Virus record (IMG/VR): IMGVR_UViG_3300023371_000069
Direction: 5' to 3' (one strand)
Source: a virus
Lineage: Duplodnaviria > Heunggongvirae > Uroviricota > Caudoviricetes
DNA length: 64,000 nt
Position numbers and translations under genes: made by a program. Positions 1,809 to 22,179 of the stretch are shown here, one piece after another. The notes under the pieces were generated by a model, which worked only from the letters and a program-made list of their open reading frames with translations, had not been told where the DNA came from and did not search any database. Positions within the stretch are counted from its first letter, which is position 1. Every line of letters starts with the position of its first letter.

Positions 1809-4061
1809 TTAAATAAATATAAAATCTAAACTTTCATCGGTACTATTATACACAAATTTTACCTTAGAGTCAACTGTAATCGCTCCGTTGATAGATGTAT
1901 CACCTTGCACATGGAAAGCTCCTGTGGGGGCAGCAGTTGAATTAATAGCAACCTTAGTAGCATTTGCATAATGATTGCCGCCAGAAGTCATTCTGACTGA
2001 ACCGTTGTAAGCCTCAGTATAAACCAAACGTCCACTCACTAAGTTGGTATTACCAGTACCACCTTTTGAAGGTTCAAGACAGGTAATTGCGGTCGCGACA
2101 CCAGAAGCAGCAATATAAACGGGAACACTAGCATTACCTGCGGCTGTATCAGCGGTATGTACCACCAATTCACCACTAGTTTCAGGATGCGTAACATCAT
2201 AATTGGTTGTACCATTATAGTAACGCCAAACTGCTCTATGTGTTCTATCAGCTGGTGTTAAATATAGAGTACTTCTAATACCAGAAGCACTACCTAAAGT
2301 AATACCTGCATATCCGTTAGCTGCAGGTGCAACAACAATACCTTCATCATCACCAGAGCCATAAGGTCTACCACTAACGATAAGACCTCCGTTTAGGGTA
2401 GTAACTTTTGATACAGTTAAAGTATTTGATAATGAAGCAGCTCCAGTTACAGATAAAGTATTACTTAAAGTTGTGGCGCCAGTAATGGCTAAAGTACTTA
2501 ATCCTTTAATAGAGCCAGTAACTTGTAAATTACCACCGATATTCACATCAGAAGCAAAAGAAGAAGCTGTGCCTACGTCTAAGCCACTAGGGAATTTAGA
2601 TTTACTATTTAAATATAAAACAATCTAATTTGTGGTGGAAGAAGTAGTTGGATTAATAACTAATGCATTATCATTAGAAGATAATACGACATGATTTTCA
2701 CTTGGTGTACCAAACACTAATTGAGTTGTATTACCAGTACTAGAACTAGCGTGAGAGCCTGTTAAATAAACATGACCTTTTGCATTTAGAATTCCTTTTA
2801 CAGTGGTGCCAGTTGCATTAACCTATAACCAAGTATTTTCTTCTTCCCAACCAGTACCAACATACCAATAATTTAAAGTTCCTCCTGCGCCATAGGCACC
2901 CATTTCTGCTTTTACGCTTGCAGTATCACTAGATGTATTTTTCTATTTCCAATCAATATATCGTGCCCATCCACCGCTTTTTGTAACTTCAGTAGTAATA
3001 CTTCCACTAGTATTCATTGTTAATTTATTTTCACTGGTTTGAATAACTAGAGGGCCAGACATGGTATCGCCTGTTTTTAAAACATATTTACCATTATAAT
3101 GACCATCAAGATAATTAGTAAAATTATCTTCATCAAGAATAACTCTCCAATCTTGCCAAGTACCATTATTTTTACCACGAACCGCAAGTTGACCAGTGCG
3201 ATAGTCTTGATAAATTTGAGTAATCCAAGAGTCGTTATATTTATTTACAATAGCTACACCATCACTAATACCAAGAATACCAGAAGTATCATTAACATAC
3301 CAAATACCAGTATTAGTGGCACTGCCAATCGCAATTCCTGTTGTAGCTGTTACATTAGTGCCAGCCATACGATAAGTAGTAGGCTATGGAATTCCATCAG
3401 TAGTAAAATAAACTGGTCTATCAGTACTACCACCTGATTTGGTTAAACGATTAGCTTTATCAGCAACACCAATTAGATTACCTGTAACATCACCAGTTAC
3501 ATTACCAACAACATTGCCAGTTAAATTTCCAATAAAACCGCCAGTAGAAGTTACAGTTCCAGACACAGATAGTGAGCCAGAAGCGTTACCATTTACAATA
3601 TATAAGTTAGCCCAACGCAAACTAGAAGTACCAAGGCTCTTTTTGTTAGTCTCACTTGGAACAACATTACCGCCAGAAGTAATAGTACTGGCAGTTGTTA
3701 AGCCATTTAGTTTACTTGTTGTGCCATTTAAATAATAAGATGTTGAGCCTAAATAAATATCACTACCAAACAAAGATTTTTTAGCTACATAAATACCGCC
3801 AGTTACTTGAATTGCTCCAGAACTTGCGGCTGTCGCTTCTGCACTGCCAGTAACAATAACTGCTGTTGATGCTCTTAGGTTTGCACCATATATATTTAAC
3901 CAAGCGTTATCTGCTGTACCTAAATTATAGGTTAAGGTTTCTCCTGGTATAATAACATCATAAGCAATTGCACCTTTATTTAGAAGTACATCTTCATTAT
4001 ATGTAGATACTCCAAGAAAACGAGAAGGCCCATTAACAATTAAATCTCTTAATTGTGCCAC
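1809..4061 (-). CDS. Tail fibre-like protein (750 aa with TAG=Gln)
   Basis: Joins ORFs 3384..4061, 2943..3368 and 1809..2546 through TAGs at 3384, 2943, 2823 and 2625. GTG start, TAA stop. Gly/Thr/Ser-rich fibre repeats (GNLTGNVVGNVTG, TLSVTGAASLSNTL) and a knob-like segment QIYQDYRTGQLAVRGKNNGTWQDW. Confidence 0.85.
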
Positions 4062-4451: not shown

Positions 4452-6869
4452 TTAAAATTCATAATAGTTTTGAGTTTCAATAGAGTCGATTAAAAAGCTT
4501 GTTCTTTTATCTAACTTTACATACACATCTAAAGACCCTTTAATAGTTTTTTTACCAAATCCAGGAATGCCTCCATTATAAGCGGTCCAGCATCCCACTG
4601 CATTCCACCAATTTCCAGTAGAGGTTGAAATTGCCCAATGAGTATTACCCGAGCATTTTACTAATCCTCCACTCATATTAGAAATGTTTTTAAATCCTGT
4701 TACAGAAGTTGTATTGTTTGGATTATTTGTTTGAATCCATCTATATACAGTACCTGCATCATCATCAGGTTGCAAAACTAAAAATTCAAATGCACCATCA
4801 GCTCCTCTTAACTATTCAGTTAAATAAAGCCTACTATATAAGTCTTCTTCTGTATGATTGGCGGCATTAGATGGTGTAAAATACTTAGTACCAGCTCTAT
4901 TATTATGATGTAAAATTTGTACCCACAAATCACCATCATATCTCATTATCTTATTAATATTATACTCAATAAAATTCTCAAAGTCAACTACTCCTTCTTT
5001 AAAGACTGAGTTGTCGCCCTCTTCAGTGAACTCATAAGCATAAACATTACCACCATTATCTACAGTGGCACCATTTAAATATAATTCTTTAATCTATAGT
5101 TCATCTAGTGCTGTAGCATAAATTCTAACATCACTAGTATATAATTTACTATTACCATATGTAGTACCATTATAATTACCAACCAATAAATTACCAGTAC
5201 CACCGGATAAAGTACCTGCGGCCGCAGTAGATGTTAAAGGTATTCCATCAACATATCTACGAATAGTTGTTCCATCAAATGTAGATGTAATCATATGCCA
5301 TTTCCCATCAATAGTAGTACCATTTGTTGTTACGCACTAGCGAGTTCCACTAATAACATATCCAGCGCGGAATTTACCAGTCGTTCCCTCCAATGAAAAT
5401 TCATAATTAGCACTACCAAAGCTTAATGGAATATGATAATTACTATATCCTGCGTTACTACCTTTAACCCAGCAACTCATAGTTATACTATCTTTTGGAA
5501 ATATCATAGTATCACTTGCAATATAATTACTACGACCATCTGTGATGTATGCAGAATATTTATTGCGACTAGAATCTGGCATCATCGATACTGCTCCTAC
5601 TACACGACCGTGATGTCCAAAACCCGAACAGTCATAGACCTTAGAAGCTTCTCTACTACCAGAAACATAATCTGTTGCATGGTCATTAATTTCTAACTAA
5701 ATATTTCTTACATAAGCAGTTCCTTCAATACCATAATGACCATACATATATACTGCTCCCACATTAGAACTATCACCGTCTTGTCCAAGAGTCCAAGTGT
5801 ATGAATATTTTTTCCAAGTTGTAGTTAAGCTCTACTAATGTTGTCCATCATGGAAGTTATTTGAAGTTGCTCCATTTTTTCTATAATATAAACCAAACTG
5901 TACTGTTTTACCTTTTATATCACTTTTAGCTTCAAAAGAAATAGTATATTTATTACCTTTACCAATCGCCTACGCTAAATTAACAGTACCCCATGAAGAA
6001 ATTCCTAACCAACGGCCTTTATAATTATATGCTGAATTTAAATTTGGAAACACCATTGTAGGCACGTCATCTATAACATTCCAATAGGCATGATAACCAA
6101 TTGTTGGTGAATCAACACCACTGTTATACCCTGCAGTAAATCCAGATACATTAATAGCATTTGGATGTAAAGAAGAGTCCCATCCAGCACTTACTCTACT
6201 ACCAGGGGTTGGATACAATAAATAATTAGTTGTGCTTTGTAAAGTACTATCTCGTAAAGGATAATGAAGCATTAGACCTCTACTTAATTCATCAATTTCT
6301 TTTAGACAAAGTGGATGGTCATATAATCTAAAATCATTCATTTTTGCTGTTCCACTAATACTAATGGTACCAGGGCGTAATGTAAAATTATAATCAGCGC
6401 TATTGTATTGATGTTTTAAAGCTCCATTTACAAATACTTTTACCTATACACCGAAATCTCCATTATTAACATTAATAACATAATGATTCCAGGTTCCAAG
6501 CTCCCATACTCCAGAAGTAGAACGAGTATCATAAATCCAAATCATTTGAGGTTTGTTATTATTGCAATGTAATTTAATAGCATAATTGGAAGTATAATCC
6601 ATTTTTGCCATATTAAAAATATCATCAATACCTGTGTTAGTAATAGGAAATTTAATATTATAGCTATCTCCATTGGCAATATTCCACCAGAAACTACAAC
6701 AAAAACCATCTGTTGAATTTAATTCTGCGGCAGTTCCTTGAATGGTGCCACTAGCGCAATAGCCCAACTTACCTTGAGTGTAAGAAACATTTGAGCTTTT
6801 AAAACGAATAGTATTTAATCCTTGGTTATTAATATGATTATTTAATGGTAACCATACTTGTAAACTCAT
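4452..6869 (-). CDS. LamG/ConA-like multidomain tail protein with a C-terminal fibrinogen-like domain (805 aa with TAG=Gln)
   Basis: Joins five ORF-track fragments through TAGs at 6444, 5970, 5835, 5832, 5697, 5337, 5094 and 4812, with no TAA/TGA before 4452. Motifs MSLQVWLPL, MNDFRLYDHPL, GLMLHYPL, VRNI(Q)LE..HATDY, SDVRIYATAL. The C-terminal domain (RWIQTNNP...WWNAVG.WT...GIPG) call is tentative. Confidence 0.85.
4959..4987 (-). promoter_or_regulatory. Sigma-A/70-type promoter consensus inside a coding sequence
   Basis: TTGACT (4987-4982), 17-nt spacer, TATAAT (4964-4959). The spacer contains AATTTT, as in the two intergenic promoters. Confidence 0.5.
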
Positions 6870-7884: not shown

Positions 7885-8472
7885 TCAATATAACTCTTCC
7901 CAGAAGCTACCTAAAGCTTCACTAAATTCATCCAACTTTTGGATAATTTCATCATATACAGTAGGAGCTAAATCATAATCATGATTAATTTTTTGAACAT
8001 CCATACCATATAATACTTTACTCTTTGTTGGACGAGTGTTTAAGTTATAAATAAATTGCTGTCCTACTTCATCAACCTTGTAGAATCGAATTGAATATTG
8101 GACTGTACCTGCGACCGCAGTTGCACCGCCATCAATACACCAAGGAATCAACATTTTTTCCTCGTCAGCATAAGAAGTAACATCATAAAAAGGTACTGCA
8201 TAAATGCGAGCCTTATTATCTGCGGTTACATATTGAACGATGCATACTGTTTGTGACAAGTCCATATAATCAAAGAAACGGTCTACTTTAAAATAGACCG
8301 TTTCAGATTTATGGTCATGTTCAACACTCAGATACTCTGGCGTTTCAATTTGACGAGTTTTTAAGTCAATATTGTAGACTTTTTCAGACGAAGGTAAAAT
8401 AGCAATTGTTGGCCGATTGTTTGATTGAATATAAGCAAGATACTTATAATATTCTTCGGTTGAAATAATCAT
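7885..8472 (-). CDS. BppU-like (baseplate upper) N-terminal-domain protein (195 aa)
   Basis: Intact ORF with SD. The motif IDLKTRQI...DHKSETVYFKVDRFFDYMDL...VQY resembles BppU-type domains and is shared with 8494-10425. Confidence 0.6.
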   Translation of the reverse strand: MIISTEEYYKYLAYIQSNNRPTIAILPSSEKVYNIDLKTRQIETPEYLSVEHDHKSETVYFKVDRFFDYMDLSQTVCIVQYVTADNKARIYAVPFYDVTSYADEEKMLIPWCIDGGATAVAGTVQYSIRFYKVDEVGQQFIYNLNTRPTKSKVLYGMDVQKINHDYDLAPTVYDEIIQKLDEFSEALGSFWEELY

Positions 8473-8493
8473 TTTACCTCTCCTTTCAAGTTA

Positions 8494-10425
8494 TTAGAAA
8501 CTTACAACAAAGTTACCAGAGTGAGCATCTTCTCTTGCGGAGTAGGCACCATTTAATTCATTAGTTACATAGCAATGGATGAACATAACGTCACCATGAA
8601 TGTTACTACCATCAATCAATAGCTTATTGCCATCAAAGCTAACACCAGGAGTGTCCTGAGTCAATAGCTTATCTTCATCGTACCACTCATAGATTAGTCT
8701 ATCAGAGTGTAAAGCTACAGGCTCATCAAAAGCCTCATGCTCAATCACAATTTCAACTAAGCGGTTGGGGAATGCTTGAGCCTCAAGCTGCTTAGAATAT
8801 TCAGAAGAAGCAGGATATTTCAAGACTGGAGCTTCTGGAGCTCTAGTCACACGAGCAACATTACTCTCAATAGCAATATCATCGCGGTTCAACATAGAAG
8901 TAACATAAACCTTATACCAGCCGGGTTCAGCAGTCTCTAAAGTCAAATCATCAGTGACTTTACCAATCTTACCCTCGGTATTATTATCATAAGTGTGAGA
9001 AATAACATCAACCATGCCATCTTCTTTGTCATCGTTAACATTCTTCTTCCACAAATAAGTCATAGACTGATAAGCTGCAGCAGGCGCACCATCATTCTTA
9101 ACTTCAACATTCAATGTTAAGCCATCATTTTCATCTAGTAAAATACCATTTGCAGGCAATCCTAAAGCTTTTTCATCAGCGTCTTTATCACCAGAAACGA
9201 ATTCCAAAACCTCGGGACCAGGAATAGTAACACTCAAAGACTTAGAAGCAGAAGGGAATCCTAGCTTATGTTTAGCAATTAGCTTGTAAGTACCAGTTAC
9301 AACACCAGGAGCATCAGCAGCAGGACTAATGCTTTCAGTAATTCTATAAATGGCATAACGCTCATAAATAGCGATATTCTCTTCCTTAGTGGTTTCGAAC
9401 TGATTATGAGGCAATTCCTCATATCCATAAGGAGTAGCACTTGCGTTTTGTACATAGTAAACCTTATACTCAACTGGAGCATCATCTTCAGTTTCCTTGA
9501 AAGCTGTAGTTTCAGCACCTTGAACATTGATACCAGCAACGACAATATTGCCAGTTAAGTTACTGTACTCCCAATCATAAGACAAATGTCCCTGACCTTC
9601 AACCCAAGCTTGACCAGCCAAAGTTACAGCGTTATTCTTATCCAAATGAATAACATTGTTTTCAAAACCAATAGAATAGCCAGGAGCATCGAAGGAAGGT
9701 GGGTCTACAGTATCACTATCAGAAGTATGCTCACTATTTTCAATTGCTAGCTTAAATAAAGAAGCAGCATCATCATATTCAACATAATCAACTACGGGCT
9801 TTAATGCCTGCTTAATAGTGATAGTTGCAGGAACAGAGTTCCAGCTATAAACAACCTTGTCGCCATCTCTCTTTAAGAAACGTAAAGAGAATTCAACAGG
9901 ACCTTCTTGTGCGGTAACTGCACCAGTTAAAGGCCATACCAAAATCAACTTACCTAAATGATGCTCGCTCTCATAATCCATATAAGGAATAGGAGTTGCG
10001 CCCTGCTCACCATTTTTCAGCTTCCACTGAATATAAGGCTCAGTCATCATGAAGTCCATAGAATCGAAGAAGCGGTCAATGCGTAAGAACAAAGTCTCGG
10101 CAATTACGTCACCTTGAACGCCAGCGCCGTATTTCTTGAAACCATCAGGAATAGTAATAATTCTAGTATTAGCATTTACCTCTAAACAAGGTTCATCTAA
10201 AGGCAACATTAAATATTTAATTGGGTTATCAGCATTATCGACCAAGTCTCCCAAACGGGTAAAATACTTCTCCAAAGAAGAGAAACGATCGAATTGATTT
10301 AATTCGTCTTTTTCAGCTTGCTGCAGAGGAGTCTTCAATTTTCCCTGGCTATCCAGCTCTAACAGTAGCTTTCCAGCATCTGCAAAAAGGAATGAATAAT
10401 CTGCATTTTTAATAGAAGTAATCAT
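8494..10425 (-). CDS. BppU-like domain plus Ig-like beta-sandwich domains, baseplate/fibre carrier (643 aa)
   Basis: Intact ORF ending TAA-TAA. Contains VNANTRII...GDVIAETLFLRIDRFFDSMDF...YIQW, then YLW/YEW...G.Y.V.V patterns typical of Ig-like folds. Confidence 0.6.
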   Translation of the reverse strand: MITSIKNADYSFLFADAGKLLLELDSQGKLKTPLQQAEKDELNQFDRFSSLEKYFTRLGDLVDNADNPIKYLMLPLDEPCLEVNANTRIITIPDGFKKYGAGVQGDVIAETLFLRIDRFFDSMDFMMTEPYIQWKLKNGEQGATPIPYMDYESEHHLGKLILVWPLTGAVTAQEGPVEFSLRFLKRDGDKVVYSWNSVPATITIKQALKPVVDYVEYDDAASLFKLAIENSEHTSDSDTVDPPSFDAPGYSIGFENNVIHLDKNNAVTLAGQAWVEGQGHLSYDWEYSNLTGNIVVAGINVQGAETTAFKETEDDAPVEYKVYYVQNASATPYGYEELPHNQFETTKEENIAIYERYAIYRITESISPAADAPGVVTGTYKLIAKHKLGFPSASKSLSVTIPGPEVLEFVSGDKDADEKALGLPANGILLDENDGLTLNVEVKNDGAPAAAYQSMTYLWKKNVNDDKEDGMVDVISHTYDNNTEGKIGKVTDDLTLETAEPGWYKVYVTSMLNRDDIAIESNVARVTRAPEAPVLKYPASSEYSKQLEAQAFPNRLVEIVIEHEAFDEPVALHSDRLIYEWYDEDKLLTQDTPGVSFDGNKLLIDGSNIHGDVMFIHCYVTNELNGAYSAREDAHSGNFVVSF

Positions 10426-10455
10426 TTCTAAATATCATCCTTTCTTTAAATTTGC

Positions 10456-10479
10456 GAGGGAGAGATTACTCTCTCCCTC
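10456..10479. other. Intergenic stem-loop without a minus-strand U-tract
   Basis: gagggagag/ctctccctc inverted repeat between two co-oriented genes. Its stem resembles the terminators but no T tract follows. Confidence 0.6.
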
Positions 10480-10511
10480 TATTATTTTGATAATTTAATT
10501 AAATAATTAAA

Positions 10512-10721
10512 TTATTTCTGTCCAGCAACTTCTTTCCAAAGAGGAAGGTCAGCTTCTGGAATTACTACGGTATCATGGTAAGTCTTGCCATCGCAAGTCA
10601 AACGCTTACCCTGGTCTGCAGTTAGACGATATTTTCTAATATAATAAACATCTTCTAAATGCACAGGAGAACAAATAGTACCATTAGTACCTAAGTAAGT
10701 ATATAAAACTTGTTTAGTCAT
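10512..10721 (-). CDS. Small protein (69 aa), possible chaperone of the upstream giant protein
   Basis: ATG with the SD GGAGG 16 nt after the giant gene's stop, TAA stop. Function inferred from position only. Confidence 0.65.
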   Translation of the reverse strand: MTKQVLYTYLGTNGTICSPVHLEDVYYIRKYRLTADQGKRLTCDGKTYHDTVVIPEADLPLWKEVAGQK

Positions 10722-10737
10722 TTTTTATCCTCCTTTA

Positions 10738-13700
10738 TTATTTTCCGACAATAGAGATATTATCAATACTGTCAACGGTTACGAATGGTTGACCATTAGC
10801 TCCACCAACAATCCAATCATTCCAAGTGGTTTCCATACCAGATGGACAATAAATAGTTACGACAGAAGGTCTAGAGCCTTGACCATTTTCGATACAAGCG
10901 ACATCTCTCTTGTTCTTTAACCATTTTTCTTGAGTTAACTGAGAAGGAGAATTTTCTGCACCAATAGTTAAGGTTTTCAATGCAATACCCCAAGAAATTG
11001 CTCCACCTAAAATATCTCTTAGCATTGGATTCAATACGCAATCAACAGGTTCAGCTAAGTTACCAGTAGCAGAGAAAGCGTAAGTTTGAATCAATACTAA
11101 TGGGTCGCAGAATGTAAAGTTACTAAAGTAAGGACAGCTTTCAAAAGCGCCATTATTAATAACTCTCAACTTCTTCATTGCGGGGAAGTCAACATATTTC
11201 AAAGCTTTCATACGAGCAAAGAAATTGTTGTAAATAATACGAACTTCACAAGTAGCTGCACTATCAAAGAAGATATGAGTAATATACTCATCTTCAGTGA
11301 ATCCACGATATTCATAGATTGGTTGTCCAGCGGTTACACCATCAATGCCAGAAGGAGTTCGAGTTGGTAAAGTAATCTTACCTTTCAAGAAGCCATTCTT
11401 ATATTCAGGCTTCAAAGATAAAATGTATCCATTAGAATAATCATAAGTTCCGCCTTCACCATATGCGTCAGTATAACTAGAACCTACAGTGTAATTAAAG
11501 TATTTCACTGGGTCAGTTACATTTGCAAAAACACTTTCCTTCTTATATACCGCATAGAATGTATAATCTCTGGTTGCAGGATACATAGAAACATTGATTA
11601 AAGGAAGTTCTTCATCAGGAACATTTTCACCGTAAATAACTTTAGCCTTTTCAATGTCATTAGTCCAGCCCTTAAATGCATTACGCATATACAAATCATC
11701 GGCAGTTAGGTTTACAGGTGCGGGAACATTATCATTCATATAAGAACCCTTATCACTGTAAGCAACCTTAGCTACTTGTCTATATGTTGGGTCGAAGTAA
11801 TCTAAGAAGACTGCTTCGTATTCATGCTCAGTTAAAATAGCATAGAAAGGATAGTCAAACTTATCAGCTGCGAACAGCTTAGATTTTGCAGCCATCCAAG
11901 CTACATTATGAGCAGCAATCTTTTCTGCGTCAGTCATATCATCGTTGATATCACCATAAATAATTTTACTCTTGTCTGCGGCATTGGAAGAAGTAGACCA
12001 ACCATAGAAATCCCAGTGGGCTCTTTCTACTTTATACAAGCTATATGGGTTAGTAAACCACAAAGTGGAATCCCCAGCCATAGCTTCTTGACTAATCTTC
12101 TGAACACTAGGTCCATATCCATCAGAACTTAAGTAATCAACGAATCCTTCTGCACCAGTATCTTTATCTACTAAAACGAATTTAGCAGAGTATGCAGGAG
12201 TAACGTTAGCAAAGAAGAATGTTAAGTTAGGATAATACATCTGTAAAGTATCCTGAATAGAACTTTCTTCAATAGGAGTAGTATTATTGATATAAATTAC
12301 ACCAGTAATATTAGGTCTATTTAGACCACTAGCATCCTTGAAGCGAGGATTACTATACAAATTGGTTAACATAGTAATTGCATCATCGGCAACATTAGTA
12401 ATGTCTGCTGCAAATTCGCCAGCCTCAGTGCGGCCGCCATGTCCATCGTCACGATACAAGCCACCACTCAATACATCAATATTGAACTGCTTTTCATTAT
12501 AGACATAACCATCAGGATTATACAGAGTAAATCCATAGTGACCATTATCAATGTAATACTTCTTAGAAGCATCAAATACGTCACCTTCAGTTAAATGAGT
12601 ATAAGGACACCATTCAACATCAGTCATGGTTACATTGGCATTACCAGCATTATTATTTAAAGTATACAATTGCTTTAGAATGATGTAACTATTATAACCT
12701 AATTTACCGCCAATAAATTTAACTGTATTCATCTTGGAACTACCCTCGAAGAAACCTTCTAAGTATAATCCAGGATTTGCTTCTAATTCATCGGTAGTAA
12801 CATTTAAAGTGGGAATTTCATATGCATGGTCTTCATCATGGCCAATTAATTCAGTTAACAAGTTAGCTTGAGTTAAGGCCAAAGAACCAACGGATGCAGG
12901 CAAATACAAAGTATTTAACGCAACACCATCTGCAAATGTAACAGAAGTTAAGTTACTTGCACCAGTAGCTCTGAAGTTTTCCATCTTTTCAGAAGAGCTA
13001 AAATCAAGAGCAGTTTCATTTACTAGACCAATATTACAGAAGTTAACTTCTTTTAATAGAGGTAGTGAAGTAGGTACTGTAATACCATTTAACTTCTTAT
13101 TATACCAACCAATTTCAGTCTTAGTACTTGCATTACTATCTTTATAGTCAATGGTAGTACCATCATGACCAAGCTTCAAGCGAGTTAGCTTATCAGCCTT
13201 ACCCTCAAGTTTAAACTCAGTCCAATACATCTTACTTAAGTCACCGAAATCAGACATTTGGTTAGTACCATAAATATATAACAACTGTTCAGGATAGTTG
13301 TCACTATTTTTAATACCATTTTCCAATTCATTTAATACGAATTGCATCTTATGGATACCATCATATTTCTTAGAAGGATAGTTCATACTGTCATCACCAG
13401 CAGTAACATATGCGCTTCGAATTGGAGTAGGTTCAATCCAATATTCAGAGTCAAACTCGTGAGTCTTGGTTCCAAAAGGTACATTGTTTACCCAATATGG
13501 GTCATCAACGCTATTGGTCCATTTATCAGAGTGAACATCAGTAATATCAGAGTCAAGGTCACTTCTGTTGTTAGCAGAAATACGACCCCATAGACGGTTC
13601 GCACCACCACGAGCATAGTTACCTTGGGTCAACCAAGAGTCAATGTACTCAAGACGATTTCCAACGAACTGCTGACGAGATTGAGAACGGTCACCTTGTA

Positions 13701-16700
13701 AAGCATAGAAGTAAGTGCCGGTGTCTGGTTCAGCGAACGCACCACCAGAACCTTCGCCGCCCAAGTGAGCAACGCCCTCTTCTTTTGCTTTGGGGTTACA
13801 AATAGTAATATACTTAAAGTACATATCCAAATTAGTAGCTAATAATGGACGCTCGCCTTCACAAGCAATATTATTAGTTGCATCAGGATTAAAAGTATAC
13901 CACTTTTCAATATAATCAACAGACTGTAAAGGAGCTTTACTAGTTCCGTCTGCATTTAATAATTTAGCAAACTTAGGAGTATCATTACCTCTTAAGTTTC
14001 TATATTTAGGAACAATCCAAGTGTCTTTAAAGAACTTATAGAAGTTGTTCCACAAGATACTATCAGAAGTAGAGAAGTTACCTGCTTCAGTAGCATCAAC
14101 ATTGAATTCGAATGAAGGAATACCAGTATTGTTAATACCTAACTGAGTATCAATATCATAGAAGATTGGATACCAGATGTACTCTCCACCAGCTTCATGA
14201 GGACCCCAAGAGGCCATCATACAGTTCTTACCACGAGAGTCGTATAACTCCATAACTTCAGTCATTACGAAGTAAGTAGCAACGTACTCAGGGTCGAAGT
14301 GGTCTTCAAATTCATTAGTAAATTTAGCAGCACGATATTCTTTAGTATCGTGAGTATAAACCTTACCAGCATATTCTTTTGGAGCTGCTACATAATATAA
14401 TCCCTTAGCCCAATCCTCTTGAGAAGGAGTTTCGACCGCGCGGACTGCACCGGTTGGATGACCTGGGTTAATAACAACACCATTAGCAGCGTCGTTCATA
14501 TCATAGTCCATACCATGCCAAGTATAATACTGAGTATTAGCATCATAAGTAGCATTCTCAATATCTACTGGAGCAATCAGTAAGTCAAAACGAGAATTTA
14601 GAGTGTCTAGAGTATCATCTTTAAATTCGTAGTAAGTAGTACCACCAGCAAATTCTTCATTAGATAATGCATAAACATCATCAGTAGTGCTTACAGTGTT
14701 TCCACCAGCAGTTAATACATAGAACTTACCTTTTACATATACATACTCAGCAGGACATACATTAACTGGAATGTAGCGGTCTTCAATAACCTGCTCATAA
14801 TAAATCTTATTTGCATCAAAAGTGCTTGCATCAATTACATATTCACCATCAGCATTTAAGATGTAATATTTACCAGAAATATAAGTCTCTGCAGTTAAAG
14901 AGATAACATCATAGTTGACTTCACTCTTTACATAGTAGGTAGTGTTTTCATCAAAGTCGGCATTACTAATAGCGTAAGAATCACCATCAACTACATAGTA
15001 AACACCAGGCTCATATGCGGTATCACCGACAGGAACTTTAGAGTAAGTACCTTGAGAAACAACTGCATCAAGATTAGTACTCCACAACCATTTACATACT
15101 TTTTCCCAGTTAGTATGAGTAGATAGCAATGCCTTAGCACCGGCCTCTAAATCGCCCTTAGGAATTGTACCAGTTCCTAACTCTTCAGCAACTTCATCAA
15201 GTTCACCTTGAGTAGCTTGCTTAAAGTTGTAAAGAATATCAATATAATCATCCTTGCTGTGATAGCGATATTCAAAGCTATTAGCCACAACAGGAGCTTC
15301 ATTAGCATTGTAACCACCATTAGATACAGTGGAATTAGTAGGAGGTGTGAAACTTAATTCAACACGGCTCCATGGGTCACGATAAGAGCAATAACCACGA
15401 GCATTGTTAGAGAACTCCCAACATTCTGCTACGTCTCGTACTGCCTTATATTCCATTTTACCTTCATCATTTAAACCCTTAGGGAATAACTTATTAGTAA
15501 CTTTCTTACTAGGTTTAAATCCTAAGACCTGAGTAGAGCTCTTATCCAATAGCATACGATAAAAACCGATGAAAGTGTACTTAGCATTATCACCAGAACC
15601 AGTCTTTTGGAAAGCCATAACTGGGAAGCCCAATAGAGAAGTACGATAATCGCCCCATTGAATACCCTTAATTACAGAGCTATCAACAACAGGTTCCAAT
15701 TTATTGGTATTATTTAATAAAGCTAAATAGTCTTGTAAAGGATGCTTAGTATAACCATTACCAACCATAGATGCGAAACCTGCATTATAAGAACCAGAAG
15801 ATTCCATATAGTCAACTTTCATAGTCCATCTATCAGTTCCGTTAGTATAGTTATTCATATACCAACCATCAGCACAACGACACTCTTCATGTCCAAGATA
15901 TTTACTATCTTGTGCTAACTTAGCTTTATCAGAAACGAAAACTTCAGCATAAGGTCCACGGTTTAAGAAGATATTTAAAGAATCTTCTTCCATATATAAA
16001 CCGCTCTCAGCATTTAATTTTTCAAGCTCTTCTGGTTTTAATTCAGCCTTCTCCTTATCGGTAAAGTCTGCGATTGGTTTCCAGTTAAATTCTCCTTCTA
16101 CCTTAGTCTTAATCTTGTAATTACGACGAGGATAGAACTCAGAAGAAGTACCCTGAACAGCAAATTCAACCTTATCTCCAGAAGTCATAGTGGAAATCCA
16201 AGATGGGCAATGATGCTTGTAGTACAAGCGAACGCCTTCTTTAATTTTATCACTATCAGTTTCGCCTTCTGCGATTAAGCCATCGGCACGAGCCAAAGTC
16301 TCTAATTCACCATTAGCATATGCTCTTTCCAAATTGGTATTAACAAATTCAACACTAATGTATTTAGTATCGTCTTTACTATATGGTAAAGTAGCATTAC
16401 CAGTATCGTAAATGATATAAGGCATCAAAGGTTCATTAGGATGAGCTTCATTATATCTTAGCATAGCTTCATAAGAGAACTGGAACTCTTTCAAGTTATT
16501 ATTCTCCTCAGCCAATGCATAAGCATTACTTTGGTCAAAGATTTTTACGTTCTTGCGGTCAACAGAGAAATTTTGTACAATCTGATTAACATTTAAATCA
16601 GAATTATAAATTCTCAATTTATATAAATCAATGTCACAATTACTAGAATCAAAAACAAAGTTTCCACTATTAATTGTAAAGGCGTCAGGGTCAGTAGACT

Positions 16701-18789
16701 TAATAACACCAGTAATAACACCATTGATATAGATATATAAATATTTTAAGCTATCTTGATATACAAAACTTAAATTAATTAACTCATCTTCAACGAAGTT
16801 TACGTTAACAGTATTTTCACCGTTTGAGAAGAAAGCGTCCTGAGTGCCTACGCAGAAACCAGTAGCTTTAACATTGGTTGCATCATAATCATATAGACCT
16901 GCGGCAACATTAGTAATGTTAATATTCTTTTCAACAGTTTGGAATTTTAAATTATCATAAGTGTCTGGGTCTAAAGTTGCTTGTAAGTAAGCATCATAGT
17001 TAGAATAGCCAGTATCTTTTTGAGCTTTAAAAGCTTCATACCAAACACCGTCACCTTGATAACGAGTAATATTGGTAATTAAATTATCATATTTTTGAAC
17101 ATTGCGAATGCGGAATTGCATTTCAACAGTGTGAGACTCTTGTCCACTAACACCGGCAGCAAATACCATCTGCTGGAATGGAATAGTTAATCTAGCACCA
17201 TTACTAATTCTTAAACAAGACTGGTTAATGCTTGAATCCATCATCCAACCGTTATTATACCAGTTAAAGTTTTCGAAAATGGCGTTTTTCTTTTCACCAT
17301 TCAAAGTGTAGCTCCACAACTGTCTCTTAGCTGCGGACTCAGAATTAGAACGTCCAGTAGCAGAGAAGTCTAATAACAATCCTGCTTGCTCAACAGTCAT
17401 ATCACGATTAGGGTCTTTAACAACCTTAAACTCAATTTCTCTCTTTACAAATTTTTCATCAGTCTCGCCGCAAGAAATTTGATAGCTATTTAAAGCATTC
17501 ATTTCTGCATCAGCGATTTCCCAATAATCAAATTTAGAGAAATCCTTAACTTCACGAGGAGAGCTTTCTAATTCAATATTATTTTTATACAAATGCACTT
17601 TAGTAGAGTTGGTATTTGCGGGGTCCCATACTAAGAATGGGATTTGAATAGTATCGTAATTATAATATTCAGCCTTATAATCACCCAACCAAATTACTGG
17701 TTTAGCATTTGCGTTACTTGTTTCAATAACTGCGATTTCGTACTGTAGTGGAGCAACTCCTAAGCCTCTCTTAGGATTACTGGAAGTACCAGTGTTCTGC
17801 CACAGCTCAATACGAACAGTGTGATATCCGTGAGTTGCTTTGTCTGTACCTACTGTAAATGTCTGAGTACTATTAGCTACGTTAGCCTCGATAACACGAG
17901 TTTCAGCAGGAGTATTCATATCATCATAGTAGAAATCTAAGACCTTAGATAAAGAACCAACAACTCCGCACTTAATTTGGAATCCAGAAGTAGGATATCT
18001 AGTAGCTGGGTTATAACCGGAAACTTGAGATAACTTTAATGCAGAAGTTGATAAGTCAACAGTTCTAGTACGGCTCTTTTCGTCATGATTTGCACCTTGA
18101 ACATAAACAGACAACACACTAGAAGAGGACTCTCTTAATAGAGAACCAATTTCAATATAGTCATCAATAATACCGGGAACGCCCTCATAGTCAGATTCAC
18201 CAGTCTTATAAGTACGAGTTTGAGTAGTATAGTTATCAATAACCTCGTCGGAAATACGAGTACCCAAAGAATATACAACATTCAATGTAGTATCTACAGG
18301 AGTCACACCATCTGCCTCTAAAGCAGACTCTGCATGGATATGGAAATAAGCCTCTTGACCATTAATGAAGTTAGTATTGTCAAGAGTTAAAGTGATTGAT
18401 GGACGAGTAGTAGTAGAAACACCGGGACCACCGCCTGTGCCGCTAATAGAAAGCAATTCACAAGTATAGTTTTCTTCACCAATTAATTCAACTTTATAGA
18501 AACCGCCATCGGAATTTAAGATTAGGTCGCCTTTCTTAGGGTCGCCTTTAACAGCGCTCTTAGGAAGTGTTGCATAGCCCGTATCTTCATTTACTTCTGG
18601 TTTCTCAACTTCACCATAGTAAATTGCGGCGCCCGCAGAACCCATAATAGTTCTTTGGCCCTGGCTATCGACATAAATCTTACCTGAGTCAGTAGCAAAA
18701 TAAATCCATCCATCTTTTACTTCAGCACGCTGAATCTTACTGTCATAACCACGGACGGGAATAAATTTTACGCCATAATTTTCACTCAT
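10738..18789 (-). CDS. Giant multidomain virion-associated protein (2683 aa): fibre-type N-terminus, LamG-like domain, CotH-like kinase domain, leucine-rich repeats including BspA-like
   Basis: Single ORF with no in-frame TAG. LamG-like LYKLRIYNSDL. CotH-like VQGTSSEFYPRRNYKIK, WTMKVDYMESSG.YN, FIGFY, YDSRGKN, WYPIFYDIDTQLG. LRR-like LPLLKEVNF...LNTLYLP and INNGAFESC...IQTYAFS. Confidence 0.8.
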   Translation of the reverse strand: MSENYGVKFIPVRGYDSKIQRAEVKDGWIYFATDSGKIYVDSQGQRTIMGSAGAAIYYGEVEKPEVNEDTGYATLPKSAVKGDPKKGDLILNSDGGFYKVELIGEENYTCELLSISGTGGGPGVSTTTRPSITLTLDNTNFINGQEAYFHIHAESALEADGVTPVDTTLNVVYSLGTRISDEVIDNYTTQTRTYKTGESDYEGVPGIIDDYIEIGSLLRESSSSVLSVYVQGANHDEKSRTRTVDLSTSALKLSQVSGYNPATRYPTSGFQIKCGVVGSLSKVLDFYYDDMNTPAETRVIEANVANSTQTFTVGTDKATHGYHTVRIELWQNTGTSSNPKRGLGVAPLQYEIAVIETSNANAKPVIWLGDYKAEYYNYDTIQIPFLVWDPANTNSTKVHLYKNNIELESSPREVKDFSKFDYWEIADAEMNALNSYQISCGETDEKFVKREIEFKVVKDPNRDMTVEQAGLLLDFSATGRSNSESAAKRQLWSYTLNGEKKNAIFENFNWYNNGWMMDSSINQSCLRISNGARLTIPFQQMVFAAGVSGQESHTVEMQFRIRNVQKYDNLITNITRYQGDGVWYEAFKAQKDTGYSNYDAYLQATLDPDTYDNLKFQTVEKNINITNVAAGLYDYDATNVKATGFCVGTQDAFFSNGENTVNVNFVEDELINLSFVYQDSLKYLYIYINGVITGVIKSTDPDAFTINSGNFVFDSSNCDIDLYKLRIYNSDLNVNQIVQNFSVDRKNVKIFDQSNAYALAEENNNLKEFQFSYEAMLRYNEAHPNEPLMPYIIYDTGNATLPYSKDDTKYISVEFVNTNLERAYANGELETLARADGLIAEGETDSDKIKEGVRLYYKHHCPSWISTMTSGDKVEFAVQGTSSEFYPRRNYKIKTKVEGEFNWKPIADFTDKEKAELKPEELEKLNAESGLYMEEDSLNIFLNRGPYAEVFVSDKAKLAQDSKYLGHEECRCADGWYMNNYTNGTDRWTMKVDYMESSGSYNAGFASMVGNGYTKHPLQDYLALLNNTNKLEPVVDSSVIKGIQWGDYRTSLLGFPVMAFQKTGSGDNAKYTFIGFYRMLLDKSSTQVLGFKPSKKVTNKLFPKGLNDEGKMEYKAVRDVAECWEFSNNARGYCSYRDPWSRVELSFTPPTNSTVSNGGYNANEAPVVANSFEYRYHSKDDYIDILYNFKQATQGELDEVAEELGTGTIPKGDLEAGAKALLSTHTNWEKVCKWLWSTNLDAVVSQGTYSKVPVGDTAYEPGVYYVVDGDSYAISNADFDENTTYYVKSEVNYDVISLTAETYISGKYYILNADGEYVIDASTFDANKIYYEQVIEDRYIPVNVCPAEYVYVKGKFYVLTAGGNTVSTTDDVYALSNEEFAGGTTYYEFKDDTLDTLNSRFDLLIAPVDIENATYDANTQYYTWHGMDYDMNDAANGVVINPGHPTGAVRAVETPSQEDWAKGLYYVAAPKEYAGKVYTHDTKEYRAAKFTNEFEDHFDPEYVATYFVMTEVMELYDSRGKNCMMASWGPHEAGGEYIWYPIFYDIDTQLGINNTGIPSFEFNVDATEAGNFSTSDSILWNNFYKFFKDTWIVPKYRNLRGNDTPKFAKLLNADGTSKAPLQSVDYIEKWYTFNPDATNNIACEGERPLLATNLDMYFKYITICNPKAKEEGVAHLGGEGSGGAFAEPDTGTYFYALQGDRSQSRQQFVGNRLEYIDSWLTQGNYARGGANRLWGRISANNRSDLDSDITDVHSDKWTNSVDDPYWVNNVPFGTKTHEFDSEYWIEPTPIRSAYVTAGDDSMNYPSKKYDGIHKMQFVLNELENGIKNSDNYPEQLLYIYGTNQMSDFGDLSKMYWTEFKLEGKADKLTRLKLGHDGTTIDYKDSNASTKTEIGWYNKKLNGITVPTSLPLLKEVNFCNIGLVNETALDFSSSEKMENFRATGASNLTSVTFADGVALNTLYLPASVGSLALTQANLLTELIGHDEDHAYEIPTLNVTTDELEANPGLYLEGFFEGSSKMNTVKFIGGKLGYNSYIILKQLYTLNNNAGNANVTMTDVEWCPYTHLTEGDVFDASKKYYIDNGHYGFTLYNPDGYVYNEKQFNIDVLSGGLYRDDGHGGRTEAGEFAADITNVADDAITMLTNLYSNPRFKDASGLNRPNITGVIYINNTTPIEESSIQDTLQMYYPNLTFFFANVTPAYSAKFVLVDKDTGAEGFVDYLSSDGYGPSVQKISQEAMAGDSTLWFTNPYSLYKVERAHWDFYGWSTSSNAADKSKIIYGDINDDMTDAEKIAAHNVAWMAAKSKLFAADKFDYPFYAILTEHEYEAVFLDYFDPTYRQVAKVAYSDKGSYMNDNVPAPVNLTADDLYMRNAFKGWTNDIEKAKVIYGENVPDEELPLINVSMYPATRDYTFYAVYKKESVFANVTDPVKYFNYTVGSSYTDAYGEGGTYDYSNGYILSLKPEYKNGFLKGKITLPTRTPSGIDGVTAGQPIYEYRGFTEDEYITHIFFDSAATCEVRIIYNNFFARMKALKYVDFPAMKKLRVINNGAFESCPYFSNFTFCDPLVLIQTYAFSATGNLAEPVDCVLNPMLRDILGGAISWGIALKTLTIGAENSPSQLTQEKWLKNKRDVACIENGQGSRPSVVTIYCPSGMETTWNDWIVGGANGQPFVTVDSIDNISIVGK
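14630..15030 (-). repeat. Three degenerate ~35-40 aa Tyr-rich repeats within the giant protein
   Basis: AYEPGVYYVVDGDSYAISNADFDENTTYY / TYISGKYYILNADGEYVIDASTFDANKIYY / YVKGKFYVL...YALSNEEFAGGTTYY. Confidence 0.7.
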
Positions 18790-18819
18790 TTATTTAAACT
18801 CCTTTCTTTCCTTTATAAA

Positions 18820-18860
18820 CAAAAAAATAGGTGAGAAGAATAATCTTCTTCCCACCTATT
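18820..18860 (-). terminator. Intrinsic terminator
   Basis: The minus-strand RNA forms aataggtg-g-gaagaa/ttcttc-t-cacctatt, with a G-U pair that exists only on the minus strand, followed by a T tract. Confidence 0.8.
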
Positions 18861-18922
18861 AGATTATCCTCTATTTTTAATTAAAAATCGAAATAATCTT
18901 CTTAATACCTTTTGTCCTCAAA

Positions 18923-20644
18923 TTAGAAAGTGCCCCAAACCAGAGACATCTGAACGCTAGAGCCAGAGCTACTTACCTGCAAGTTACTATGAGTAGACTC
19001 AACATAGAAAGTAGCAGTTTGCTCACTCTTTTGATTCTTAGAGCCAGTTACTTGACCCTTAATAGAAACAGTAGCCTTAGTCTTAGCAGTGTCACTAGAT
19101 ACACTGGAAGTCATTCCAGTTAAACGAGCATTAGTATCATAGACTTTAACGGTCTTGGTATATACTTTCTGTACATGACCATAATTGTCTCTATCAATAC
19201 CATTTTCGCCCTTAGAGGCATCAATAATAACAATATCTTCTGACTTAGCAACATAATCGGTGCCAAGAGTAGGATTATTTAAAGTACCAGTGGTATCTCT
19301 AGCTGGGTCAGTAGTACTTACCGCATTATGATTAATAGTCAGTGACATTGCCTTAGAAGCAGTGTCTGAACTTGGACTTACAGTAATACAATTTCCACTT
19401 AATACAGAAATAGAGCCAGCATTAGTACCAGTAGTAGTGCCAGTTTTCTTTTCTAATAATTGAATACCACCACCATTTGCTGGAGTCAATAAACCAACAG
19501 AGTAAGTGGTATCTTCATTACCAGAAGGAACATAACCCCATTGTACAGTAGTTAAGAATCCATTGGTACCTTCAGTGCCTTCTGCAATCAATAAGTCACC
19601 AGGCTGTACTGTAATCTCTTCAGTACCAGTATCGGTTTTAACTGTTACATCAAAAGCTTGACCAACTTTATAAGTATAACCTTTCTTAATGGAACCAGTA
19701 GGAATGCTATTAACAACACCCTGATATTCCATTGCGTCAAAGTCTGCTCTTAAAGCATCAACTTCTGCTTTAGTATATACATCTAAAGTCGCAGTACCAT
19801 TGCTGAACTTAGCAGTAGAAGTGCCACTACCACCATATTTAATTGCAGGATTAAATGTGCTACTAGAACTTCTATTAGCAGTATCTTTAACTGTTACAGT
19901 AAATCCACCAGGCTTATTGGTCTCATCTTTGGGGTCCCAAGCATGAGCGGTTGCTGTATGAGTGTTACCATCTAATTTAGTGTCAGCAGCAGTGATTCCA
20001 ATTACGCCATTATCTTCGCTAACAGTAACATTGGTACCACCCTGAATAACAACTGCACTTTGCTGTACGCCAGCTTCATTAACTAACTTAATCTTTGCAG
20101 CATTATCTTGAGCCATATTTTCGCTGGCTAATTTAGTACCATATACTTCAATAGTACCATCTGTTGTACCTTCAACAATAGTAATACCATTTTTACCAGT
20201 TAAAGAGAAAGCGAAAGAAGGTTTTCTATTACCTTCACCAATTTCTGTTAAAGTAGTTGTTACAGTAACAGTTCCTGTCTGCTCTCCTGTGACTAGACCG
20301 CCATAAGTATAATTGGTATCTGTATTGGCATTAATTTGAACCCAATTTTGACCATTGGAAACAGCTAAAATAGAATCAGCTGTAATATAAACGAATTGAC
20401 CAGCATTTAAAGCAGTTGCAGTTGGTAAGACCTCCACGGTAGCGTAAGTAGTAATACCTTCATTAACAGCTTCGATGCTACCATCACTTAAACCAACATA
20501 TAATCTATGAGTATCATTGGTTAAGTAGAAAGTGCCGCTTTCGCCAGAACGGGCGGTTCTCTTAGCATCTAATGCGGTTTGTAAACCATGTAAAAACTTA
20601 ATCTGAGAATTATCAGCAATAGTGATAACATTAGTATCTGCCAT
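18923..20644 (-). CDS. Tail fibre/spike-like structural protein (573 aa, TAG-free)
   Basis: Intact Thr/Gly/Ser-rich ORF. The N-terminal motif IKFLHG...GTFYLTNDTHRLYVG is shared with neighbouring fibre genes. Confidence 0.7.
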   Translation of the reverse strand: MADTNVITIADNSQIKFLHGLQTALDAKRTARSGESGTFYLTNDTHRLYVGLSDGSIEAVNEGITTYATVEVLPTATALNAGQFVYITADSILAVSNGQNWVQINANTDTNYTYGGLVTGEQTGTVTVTTTLTEIGEGNRKPSFAFSLTGKNGITIVEGTTDGTIEVYGTKLASENMAQDNAAKIKLVNEAGVQQSAVVIQGGTNVTVSEDNGVIGITAADTKLDGNTHTATAHAWDPKDETNKPGGFTVTVKDTANRSSSSTFNPAIKYGGSGTSTAKFSNGTATLDVYTKAEVDALRADFDAMEYQGVVNSIPTGSIKKGYTYKVGQAFDVTVKTDTGTEEITVQPGDLLIAEGTEGTNGFLTTVQWGYVPSGNEDTTYSVGLLTPANGGGIQLLEKKTGTTTGTNAGSISVLSGNCITVSPSSDTASKAMSLTINHNAVSTTDPARDTTGTLNNPTLGTDYVAKSEDIVIIDASKGENGIDRDNYGHVQKVYTKTVKVYDTNARLTGMTSSVSSDTAKTKATVSIKGQVTGSKNQKSEQTATFYVESTHSNLQVSSSGSSVQMSLVWGTF

Positions 20645-20661: not shown

Positions 20662-22179
20662 TTAAGCATTAATTTTAATTTCACCCCAAGTAATAGCTTC
20701 TTGAATTTCTTTTACCTGAGTGTGAAGTGTCTTTTGATTTTGTTGTAATTCTTCAAGGTTACCAACTGTAGCTTGGAAAATTTCAGTAGTAACATATTTA
20801 GTTAAATCAATTGCATTTACCTTAGTTTTTAAATCACTAACATCTTTTTGCAATAAAGTAATAGCATTACCCTACGTTGCTACCGTACCTTCTAAGGTTA
20901 AAATTTTTCCTGCATTAGTTGAAATATTATCAGTGTTAGTTTGAACAGCAACACTTAAATTATTTACTTTAGTAATCAAACCAGGAGTAACAATACCATC
21001 AATCTCTGTATCATTCAATACATTTTCAATGGTAATAATTTTATTACCTTGAGTTTGAATATTAGCAGTATTACCTTGAATAATTTGAATATGTTCATCT
21101 GTGAAATCATTAGAAGATAATCCTTTACCCTCTTCTTTATTTACCTTCGCGTCCAAAAGTGATTGTAAATTTTGAACTTGTGCAACAGTAATTCCTTGCA
21201 ATAAAAGCTTACCAGCTTCAACTGCAAAATTTGTAGAATCAACAGATGTAATATAATTCTTTTGCGCGCCTTCCTAAATGCCTTCTAATTTAGCTTTCTC
21301 TTCATCAGAAATTAAAGAATAGCCTTCTTCAGCATCAACTTTCTTATTAAGTTCGGTTTGTAGCGCATTTTTAGTAACATAATTACTTAAATCAACTTCC
21401 CAAGAACCAACTTTTTCAGCATAACGAACTTCTGTACCAGTTTCATCCTCATAGATAATAACCATGTATTCATCATACTTGTCAGCTTCATCCTCAGGAG
21501 AAGTTAATACCATATAAATATATTGGTCAGCATCTGCGGCATTAACATTAATATCATCCACAGAATTAACGATAATTCGCTTTAAATGACCAGCATCCGC
21601 AATCTTCTCATCAACTTCAGTTTTAGTATAAGTATTCTTTTGTAAATCGCTTACAGAAGTTTGTAAAGAAGATAACTAACTGCCTAAACCTTCAATGGTA
21701 GTTGGGTTTGGTTGATACCAAGCTAATACCATTTGTCCATTTTCGCTGGCGACTTTTGGCTCTAAACCACTAATCCAAGGATTCTCATCGTCAACGACTT
21801 GAAGGACATATTCAGCTTCAGTAGTTTCAGTTGCGGCAACATATTTATAATATTGCACACCCCAGTTCTTTAAGGCAATAATTTCATTGCTAATAACAAT
21901 AGAAGAATTATCTCCTTTTAAAGATGGAATATCAACAGATGCTCCAATCTCTTGGAGTTCACCTGCGGTATTTAGAATGATATACGCAGTAGCGGTGCCT
22001 GCGGCCTCGTCTACTAAACCTAGAATCTGACCTACATATGCGACAGGGTCGGTTTGCGCATATAATTCCATTGCATCATAAGAGTACCAAATTTCACTTT
22101 TATCAAGAGGAATTGGATTACCTCTCGCAACATTCATAGGAAGGCCCATGAAGTTGCCGTCTTTTTTAATTACAGCCAT
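20662..22179 (-). CDS. Tail fibre-associated coiled-coil protein (505 aa with TAG=Gln)
   Basis: Joins four ORF fragments through TAGs at 21676, 21274 and 20872, TAA at 20662. Phage fibre-type motifs YTKTEVDEKI, KVNKEEGKGLSSNDFT, KLEGI(Q)EGAQKN. Confidence 0.8.

Follow-up and report, generated by a model that had tools for sequence, protein, structure and literature searches.

The giant gene and its CotH-type domain

The 64,000-nucleotide stretch analysed here (the window) is drawn from a 105.8-kb IMG/VR record of a virus of the Caudoviricetes, IMGVR_UViG_3300023371_000069, with an estimated completeness of 56%. A giant gene of the tail module lies on the minus strand, and its product almost certainly contains, at residues ~865-1700, a domain with the fold of the atypical kinase CotH and an intact set of CotH motifs. 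The gene is a single uninterrupted open reading frame (ORF) of 2,683 codons at 10738-18789, which starts with ATG preceded by an AAAGGAG ribosome-binding site, ends with TAA TAA and encodes a product of ~300 kDa. From the N terminus to the C terminus, its parts are as follows (aa, amino acids).

10738..18789, minus strand: giant tail-module gene, 2,683 aa (translation; PHROG 14959 match, E 4e-45)
17383..18789, minus strand: N-terminal region, aa 1-469, moderately conserved (sequence, conservation profile)
16555..17382, minus strand: lectin-like β-jelly-roll of the ConA/LamG type, aa ~470-745 (AlphaFold2 model)
16102..16197, minus strand: first strands of the CotH N-lobe, aa 865-896, with QGTSS (879-883) and K892/K894/K896 (alignment, conservation)
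15838..16101, minus strand: insertion 1 in the N-lobe, aa ~897-984 (~90 aa), variable (alignment, conservation)
15292..15837, minus strand: rest of the CotH N-lobe, aa ~985-1166, with WTMKVDYMESS, FIGFY and K991, D993, E996 (alignment, model, conservation)
14350..15291, minus strand: insertion 2 between the lobes, aa ~1167-1480 (~315 aa) (alignment, model, conservation)
13690..14349, minus strand: CotH C-lobe, aa ~1481-1700 (Pfam, hhalign, structure match, conservation)
14224-14244, minus strand: catalytic loop YDSRGKN in the C-lobe (D1517, N1522)
14137-14160, minus strand: metal-binding YDID in the C-lobe (D1545, D1547)
12040..13689, minus strand: middle region, aa 1701-2250, conserved, leucine-rich repeat (LRR)-like by eye (sequence, conservation profile)
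10741..12039, minus strand: variable C-terminal tip, aa 2251-2683 (Pfam, conservation profile)
11056-11241, minus strand: BspA-type LRR_5, aa 2517-2578 (Pfam, 29.3 bits against a cut-off of 27.7)

A sequence-only reading of this DNA had proposed a CotH-like kinase on the basis of five motifs. All five are present in this one ORF, in the order given by that reading and within a few bases of where it had placed them.

16108-16158, minus strand: motif VQGTSSEFYPRRNYKIK, aa 878-894
15784-15828, minus strand: motif WTMKVDYMESSGSYN, aa 988-1002
15559-15573, minus strand: motif FIGFY, aa 1073-1077
14224-14244, minus strand: motif YDSRGKN, aa 1516-1522
14137-14175, minus strand: motif WYPIFYDIDTQLG, aa 1539-1551

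The CotH assignment itself is borne out by structure comparison, by profile comparison and by collinearity with a protein of Bacillus phage G. An AlphaFold2 model of residues 840-1640 (801 aa) has a mean predicted local distance difference test score (pLDDT) of 75.6 and a predicted template modelling score of 0.74. In an exhaustive VIA-align comparison of this model with 48,161 chains, the first match is B. cereus CotH (5jda_A; Z 10.8, root-mean-square deviation 4.7, 278 of 359 residues aligned), which is alone above Z 5, the runner-up having a Z of 4.0. The lower rows are nearly all other atypical kinases: CtkA, HipA, Fam20C and PI4KII. The nearest viral models in BFVD include gp353 of phage G and phage proteins named CotH, and the nearest cluster in the ESM-Atlas is viral, with PF08757 in 22% of its members.

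At the level of profiles, a 41-sequence alignment of the family matches a CotH alignment (four clostridial CotH domains and phage G gp353) over the C-lobe with a hhalign probability of 96% (E 2e-9). Without gp353 as a bridge, the match to seven cellular CotH domains is weak (C-lobe E 0.0067, N-lobe E 0.059), and the register of the N-lobe is doubtful. A Pfam search with the sub-region finds CotH at aa 1486-1597, covering only positions 156-253 of the hidden Markov model (HMM; 17.4 bits, E 0.0033), and a six-frame search of the genome finds it at 19.6 bits (E 2e-5). A relative from a metagenome-assembled genome (MAG), 59% identical, scores 28.3 bits, over the curated PF08757 cut-off of 23.8 bits, and precomputed PF08757 matches exist for several close fragments (58-71% identical). 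The whole-protein Pfam scan reports BspA-type LRR_5 as the sole family, and no part of the protein falls into an NCBIfam family.

The catalytic signature of the CotH domain is complete: the QGTSS loop with its lysines, D-x4-N, and the metal-binding D-x-D. By alignment and spacing, D1517 (YDSRGKN) and D1545 (FYDID) are the putative counterparts of D228 and D251 of B. subtilis CotH, where mutation of either residue abolishes activity (PMC7821199). The two residues fall on Asp positions that are conserved in gp353 and in cellular CotH. In the N-lobe alignment, the counterpart of QGTSS (879-883) with the following NYKIK is I+.+G.SS in cellular CotH and QGTSS in gp353. As the sequence-only reading had supposed, the candidate catalytic Asp and Asn residues are intact: D1517, N1522, D1545 and D1547 do not vary across the 115 full-length homologues, which are 42-87% identical to the giant protein over the domain. 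The same is true of QGTSS 879-883, K892/K894/K896, K991, D993 and E996. Motifs of the forms D..[GA]KN and [YW]D.D occur also in the Hankyphage protein, in NatCom_3357 and in gp353. No single β3-lysine is named, because the E-INS-i alignment probably misaligned WTMKVDY with the DRYSFKI strand of the cellular proteins.

Identity along the giant protein peaks at aa 1501-1600 (0.85 and 0.81; next-best window 0.70) and is low in the inserts (0.11-0.33) and in the C-terminal tip (0.05-0.3). Such a profile suits a working site for catalysis or nucleotide binding combined with a fast-evolving recognition tip, and it argues against a dead scaffold. In the alignments, two lineage-specific insertions split the kinase core. 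Insertion 1 is absent in gp353 and in cellular CotH; insertion 2, which is confidently modelled, consists of a helical hairpin followed by a β-rich module of YY-containing repeats.

The domains around the kinase core are of the kind that the sequence-only reading had named, LamG and LRR. The jelly roll is seen in a high-confidence model (aa 440-860, pLDDT 88.9), for which Foldseek finds the lectin-like receptor-binding fragments of clostridial neurotoxins (E 1e-9), a resemblance of fold only. The region aligns with the Laminin_G_3 region of gp353; Pfam Laminin_G_3 is found in aa 440-860 in 0 of 29 family members, and hhalign of this region against the window's own LamG domain is negative. The LRR claim is supported at the C terminus by the BspA-type match above the Pfam cut-off, and the middle region occupies the place of the LRR domains of gp353. 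The variable tip is presumed to be the receptor-binding end. At the other end of the molecule, aa 1-469 presumably serve as its anchor on the tail or baseplate; the N terminus opens with a tail-fibre-like motif that is common to the 573-aa protein encoded upstream.

Relatives in phages and cells

CotH of Bacillus, a Ser/Thr kinase of the spore coat (B. subtilis; B. cereus, PDB 5JDA; PF08757), has the same atypical kinase fold, an RG.SS-type N-lobe motif in the position of QGTSS, and catalytic and metal-binding Asp residues (D228/D251) at a spacing comparable to that of D1517/D1545. Each of the two proteins is built into its own structure, the spore coat in one case and, for the giant protein, probably the tail. 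The giant protein is ~9% identical to CotH over the aligned residues, its catalytic loop is of the form D-x4-N (DSRGKN) and not D...NYYLY, and it carries the two insertions (about 90 and 315 aa). CotH is a stand-alone enzyme of ~360 aa, whereas the domain described here is embedded in a phage tail protein of 2,683 aa. A substrate with SKR repeats resembling CotB or CotG is not evident for the giant protein.

A relative with a clear CotH assignment of its own is gp353 of Bacillus phage G (AEO93612.1), which is likewise uncharacterised. It has a Pfam CotH match of 60.4 bits (HMM 2-277), with Laminin_G_3 in front and LRRs behind, and thus the layout of the giant protein: jelly roll, CotH, LRR. 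The identity to the catalytic segment is 36% (E 4e-15 in a tblastn search of a phage collection, E 4e-20 pairwise), and in pairwise BLAST the matching segments, which are collinear, take in the lectin region, the QGTSS and WT[ML]K strands and the C-lobe. Unlike the giant protein, gp353 is shorter, is without either insertion, and passes the Pfam CotH cut-off. Its gene directly follows that of gp352, which is annotated as a metallophosphoesterase (JN638751.1, 259582-268352), so that a cultured jumbo phage encodes a kinase/phosphoesterase pair; the record of the giant gene shows no such neighbour.

Another relative is the DGR-target 'tail fibre' (DGR, diversity-generating retroelement) of Hankyphage (Bacteroides phage p00, BK010646.1, 31489-38226), a giant protein of 2,245 aa with LamG and a CotH-type core that shares the QGTSS, D..AKN and YD.D motifs. 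This homologue has been named as the tail fibre of its phage (PMC12135933), and it corresponds to class f1 (Wu et al. 2018) and to PC_00012 (Roux et al.). Its identity to the giant protein is ~33%, over roughly 100 aa only. The tip of the Hankyphage protein is a DGR-mutagenised C-type lectin encoded beside a reverse transcriptase, whereas the giant protein has BspA-type LRRs at its tip; a DGR reverse transcriptase was not found in the incomplete 105.8-kb record. The hosts differ as well, being Bacteroides for Hankyphage and probably Clostridia for the phage described here.

Giant LamG-CotH phage tail proteins are recognised by a lectin-like jelly roll directly upstream of the CotH core, a length of >1,500 aa and a place in the tail module. 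All these features are found here, and the giant protein belongs to an LRR-tipped, DGR-free subclass of this class. The class has already been noticed. Giant phage proteins with CotH and LamG are mentioned as unstudied DGR targets by Wu et al. (2018), Roux et al. and Benler et al. (2021) (PMC5758913, bioRxiv 10.1101/2020.04.01.020958, PMC8008677). The statement of the sequence-only reading that it knows of no characterised example still stands. Phage proteins called 'CotH kinase' or 'Spore coat protein-like' in UniProt and BFVD (for example, from uncultured crAss-like phage cr124_1 and Myoviridae sp. ctrCp2) are structural neighbours of the model; they are 13-26% identical to the giant protein, and their names are automatic or curator-given. 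PHROG 14959 ('unknown function') matches through the C-lobe. To this class the giant protein adds one member.

More distantly, Fam20C and FAM20B have a related atypical kinase fold (Z 3.3-3.8) and no sequence match, and they are to be taken as an analogy and not as members of the same family. Both act on secretory or extracellular substrates, FAM20B on sugar.

Two database records related to the family seem to be filed under misleading headings. The plasmid collection yields a single weak match, a 175-kb Phocaeicola record. This unannotated, non-mobilisable 'plasmid' of Phocaeicola massiliensis (OY726001.1, 174,859 bp) has a CotH-type segment related to gp353 at 8532-9527, and its size and CotH gene suggest a large phage or phage-plasmid. 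Another fragment of the family has been deposited as a protein of a Methanobrevibacter sp. MAG; its 138-kb contig is probably a phage contig mis-binned into the archaeal MAG.

The tail module and its genetic code

The genes of the window are transcribed from high to low coordinates. The placement of the giant gene in the tail region, another claim of the sequence-only reading, agrees with the gene order, in which it stands in the tail module downstream of the tape-measure gene.

61.5 kb: terminase-like gene
59.6 kb: portal gene
50.7 kb: virion structural protein gene
39.4 kb: tape-measure-like gene
25-28 kb: tail protein gene
18923..20644, minus strand: 573-aa fibre-like protein, 24% Ser+Thr, the upstream syntenic gene
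18826..18860, minus strand: terminator-like hairpin in the gap between the 573-aa and giant genes, 15 pairs and a T-run
7885..10425, minus strand: downstream syntenic genes of 643 aa and 195 aa, both kept beside the giant gene in relatives

The tail protein gene is followed by genes of 493, 505 and 573 aa, the giant gene, a short ORF (70-73 aa in relatives), and the 643-aa and 195-aa genes; LamG/CBM 'virion structural' proteins, downstream of the giant gene, come last. The block is syntenic around homologues that are 40-42% identical; just downstream of one of these lies a gene for a Gp34-type long tail fibre. Neither the 573-aa nor the 643-aa flanking protein has a family match in Pfam, PHROG or NCBIfam. 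The strong terminator-like hairpin stands directly upstream of the ribosome-binding site of the giant gene, and there is no convincing sigma-70-type promoter after it. The lectin-domain 'virion structural' proteins downstream (PHROG 26670) are encoded at 3-1793 and 4452-6869. One of the two matches Pfam Toxin_R_bind_N, the lectin-like jelly roll of the clostridial neurotoxin binding domain, which is the fold that the model of aa 440-860 resembles.

Judging by the position of its gene and by analogy with Hankyphage, the giant protein is likely to be a component of the virion or tail. The two large distal tail proteins of Hankyphage were found in mass spectrometry of particles precipitated with polyethylene glycol, under labels that do not single out the CotH-bearing one (PMC12135933 S6).

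Translation with TAG read as Gln merges short ORFs of translation table 11 in window 1-30892 into long tail genes, each of the following being a fusion of table-11 ORFs.

1809-4061: tail gene of 750 aa
4452-6869: tail gene of 805 aa, with LamG and CBM_4_9
20662-22179: tail gene of 505 aa
23741-24928: tail gene of 395 aa
25276-27933: tail gene of 885 aa
27908-30892: tail gene of 994 aa

This fusion of ORFs confirms the recoding of the TAG stop codon to Gln in the window. The giant ORF has no in-frame TAG and is unchanged when translated in this way. It is part of a TAG-free island at 7885-20644, comprising the genes of 195, 643, 2,683 and 573 aa, that lies inside the TAG=Gln tail module. The island genes have 0 TAG among 115 Gln-type codons, with 40% CAG and a third-position GC content (GC3) of 0.27, compared with 33 TAG among 191 Gln-type codons, 8% CAG and a GC3 of 0.175 in the tail genes flanking the island (P about 3e-10). 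Unlike the island genes, a homologue from a related phage does contain TAG. These observations suggest that the block was either gained recently from a phage with the standard code or must be expressed without suppression.

Relatives of the giant protein lie on contigs of 175-406 kb, and the MAG bins that hold them, from gut and rumen samples, are assigned to Clostridium, Clostridia, Ruminococcus and Tenericutes. The host of this large gut or rumen phage is probably a Clostridia-type bacterium.

Possible function of a kinase in the tail

By combining these observations, it is possible to propose how the giant protein might work. It seems reasonably probable that the protein is a tail fibre that binds the receptor and carries an active phosphotransferase, in a large phage that reads TAG as Gln. 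The domain itself, going by its motifs, would on balance be catalytically active, as a Mg/Mn-dependent phosphotransferase and not a dead scaffold. The proposed order along the fibre would be the N-terminal anchor, the jelly roll, the CotH kinase, the LRR-like middle and the variable BspA-LRR tip, with the tip recognising the host. The enzyme would be a building block of the structure that it modifies, as CotH is of the spore coat. Its action would take place while the tail is being assembled in the infected cell, where there is ATP, and its targets might be the giant protein or Ser/Thr-rich fibre proteins encoded next to it; one of these, the 573-aa protein, is by inference only a candidate partner or substrate. 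Action on virion proteins at assembly is favoured because ATP is available in the infected cell, and by analogy with CotH it can be put forward tentatively. It is equally speculative that the virion-carried phosphotransferase phosphorylates fibre proteins or the host envelope in a step that is obligatory for tail maturation or adsorption, with the ~315-aa β-repeat insert serving as a substrate- or wall-docking module.

Several results weigh against an active phosphotransferase in the fibre. The Pfam CotH scores of the protein itself (17.4 and 19.6 bits) fall below the cut-off of 23.8 bits. A Foldseek search of the PDB with the whole 801-aa model gives nothing at E <= 0.001. Searches of PDB sequences by phmmer with the domain and by hmmsearch with the 41-sequence profile give no CotH match, which is likewise the outcome when phage G gp353 or a canonical clostridial CotH is used as the query. 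The equivalence of D1517 to D228 and of D1545 to D251 comes from sequence alignment and spacing, not from superposed coordinates, and the model is at its least confident in the loops of the active site (pLDDT <50 at model residues 39-51, 135-158 and 708-735). The invariance of the catalytic residues could also come from the needs of binding or folding. A metallophosphoesterase of the kind that accompanies gp353 (PF00149) has no match at E <= 1 in the 105.8-kb record, which is ~56% complete. Lastly, the work of a tail fibre is done outside the cell, where there is little ATP.

The place of action is the point on which the nearest rival differs. The CotH core might be an extracellular phosphotransferase whose target during adsorption is the receptor; it could be a kinase of glycans or teichoic acid in the style of the related secretory kinases FAM20B and POMK, with the jelly roll presenting the sugar. 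The sequence-only reading had proposed essentially this. The domain does sit between lectin-like and LRR adhesin modules, where tailspikes carry enzymes, and phage G, Hankyphage and the family of the giant protein all have the jelly roll before CotH. Fam20-type secretory kinases are among the structural neighbours (Z 3.3-3.8), and many cellular CotH proteins are secreted, 17 of 17 Mucor CotH being associated with a signal peptide (PMC9973265). The sequence data do not separate action at the host surface from action during assembly. Against the former stand the lack of an evident ATP source outside the cell and the fact that, to our knowledge, no CotH has glycan-kinase activity; it is regarded as somewhat unlikely.

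A fibre core that uses the CotH fold as a pseudo-kinase or binding scaffold, for structure or for ligand binding and without catalysis, appears less probable still. Such a role would suit a fibre working extracellularly, a kinase core split by large insertions and a sub-threshold Pfam score, and it has a parallel in the Mucorales CotH proteins that serve as ligands of GRP78 (PMC9973265). The D-x4-N and D-x-D motifs, however, show no change in any of the 115 homologues, nor in lineages with an identity of only ~30-36%, and no part of the whole protein is as well conserved as the catalytic segment. Dead kinases usually lose their catalytic residues, and because these residues are invariant here, a role in binding only is less likely. 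A non-virion kinase with a part in host takeover or sporulation signalling within the infected cell would have ATP at hand and would recall the manipulation of host signalling (dormancy, sporulation) about which Roux et al. speculate for the DGR-target class, but it is very unlikely for a 300-kDa protein with lectin-like and LRR modules and a tip as variable as in receptor-binding proteins, the gene of which lies amid a tail-fibre module in a conserved structural block, and in view of the detection of the Hankyphage distal tail proteins in particle preparations.

The preferred reading remains a fibre with an active phosphotransferase, and the value of the locus is mainly confirmation. The details that it adds are a kinase core split by lineage-specific inserts and the position of the gene in a TAG-free island. 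The family of the giant protein alone comprises at least 618 clusters at 90% identity, and the class, a very widespread one among the giant fibres of gut and rumen phages, also spans phage G, Hankyphage and crAss-like phages. Receptor-binding proteins set the host range of phages, and in this class the best-conserved part is a kinase-type active site, not the binding surface. We know of no tail-borne kinase that has been characterised. If the proposal of a virion-borne phosphotransferase is true, host recognition by phages would for the first time be seen to involve a phosphorylation step catalysed by an enzyme.

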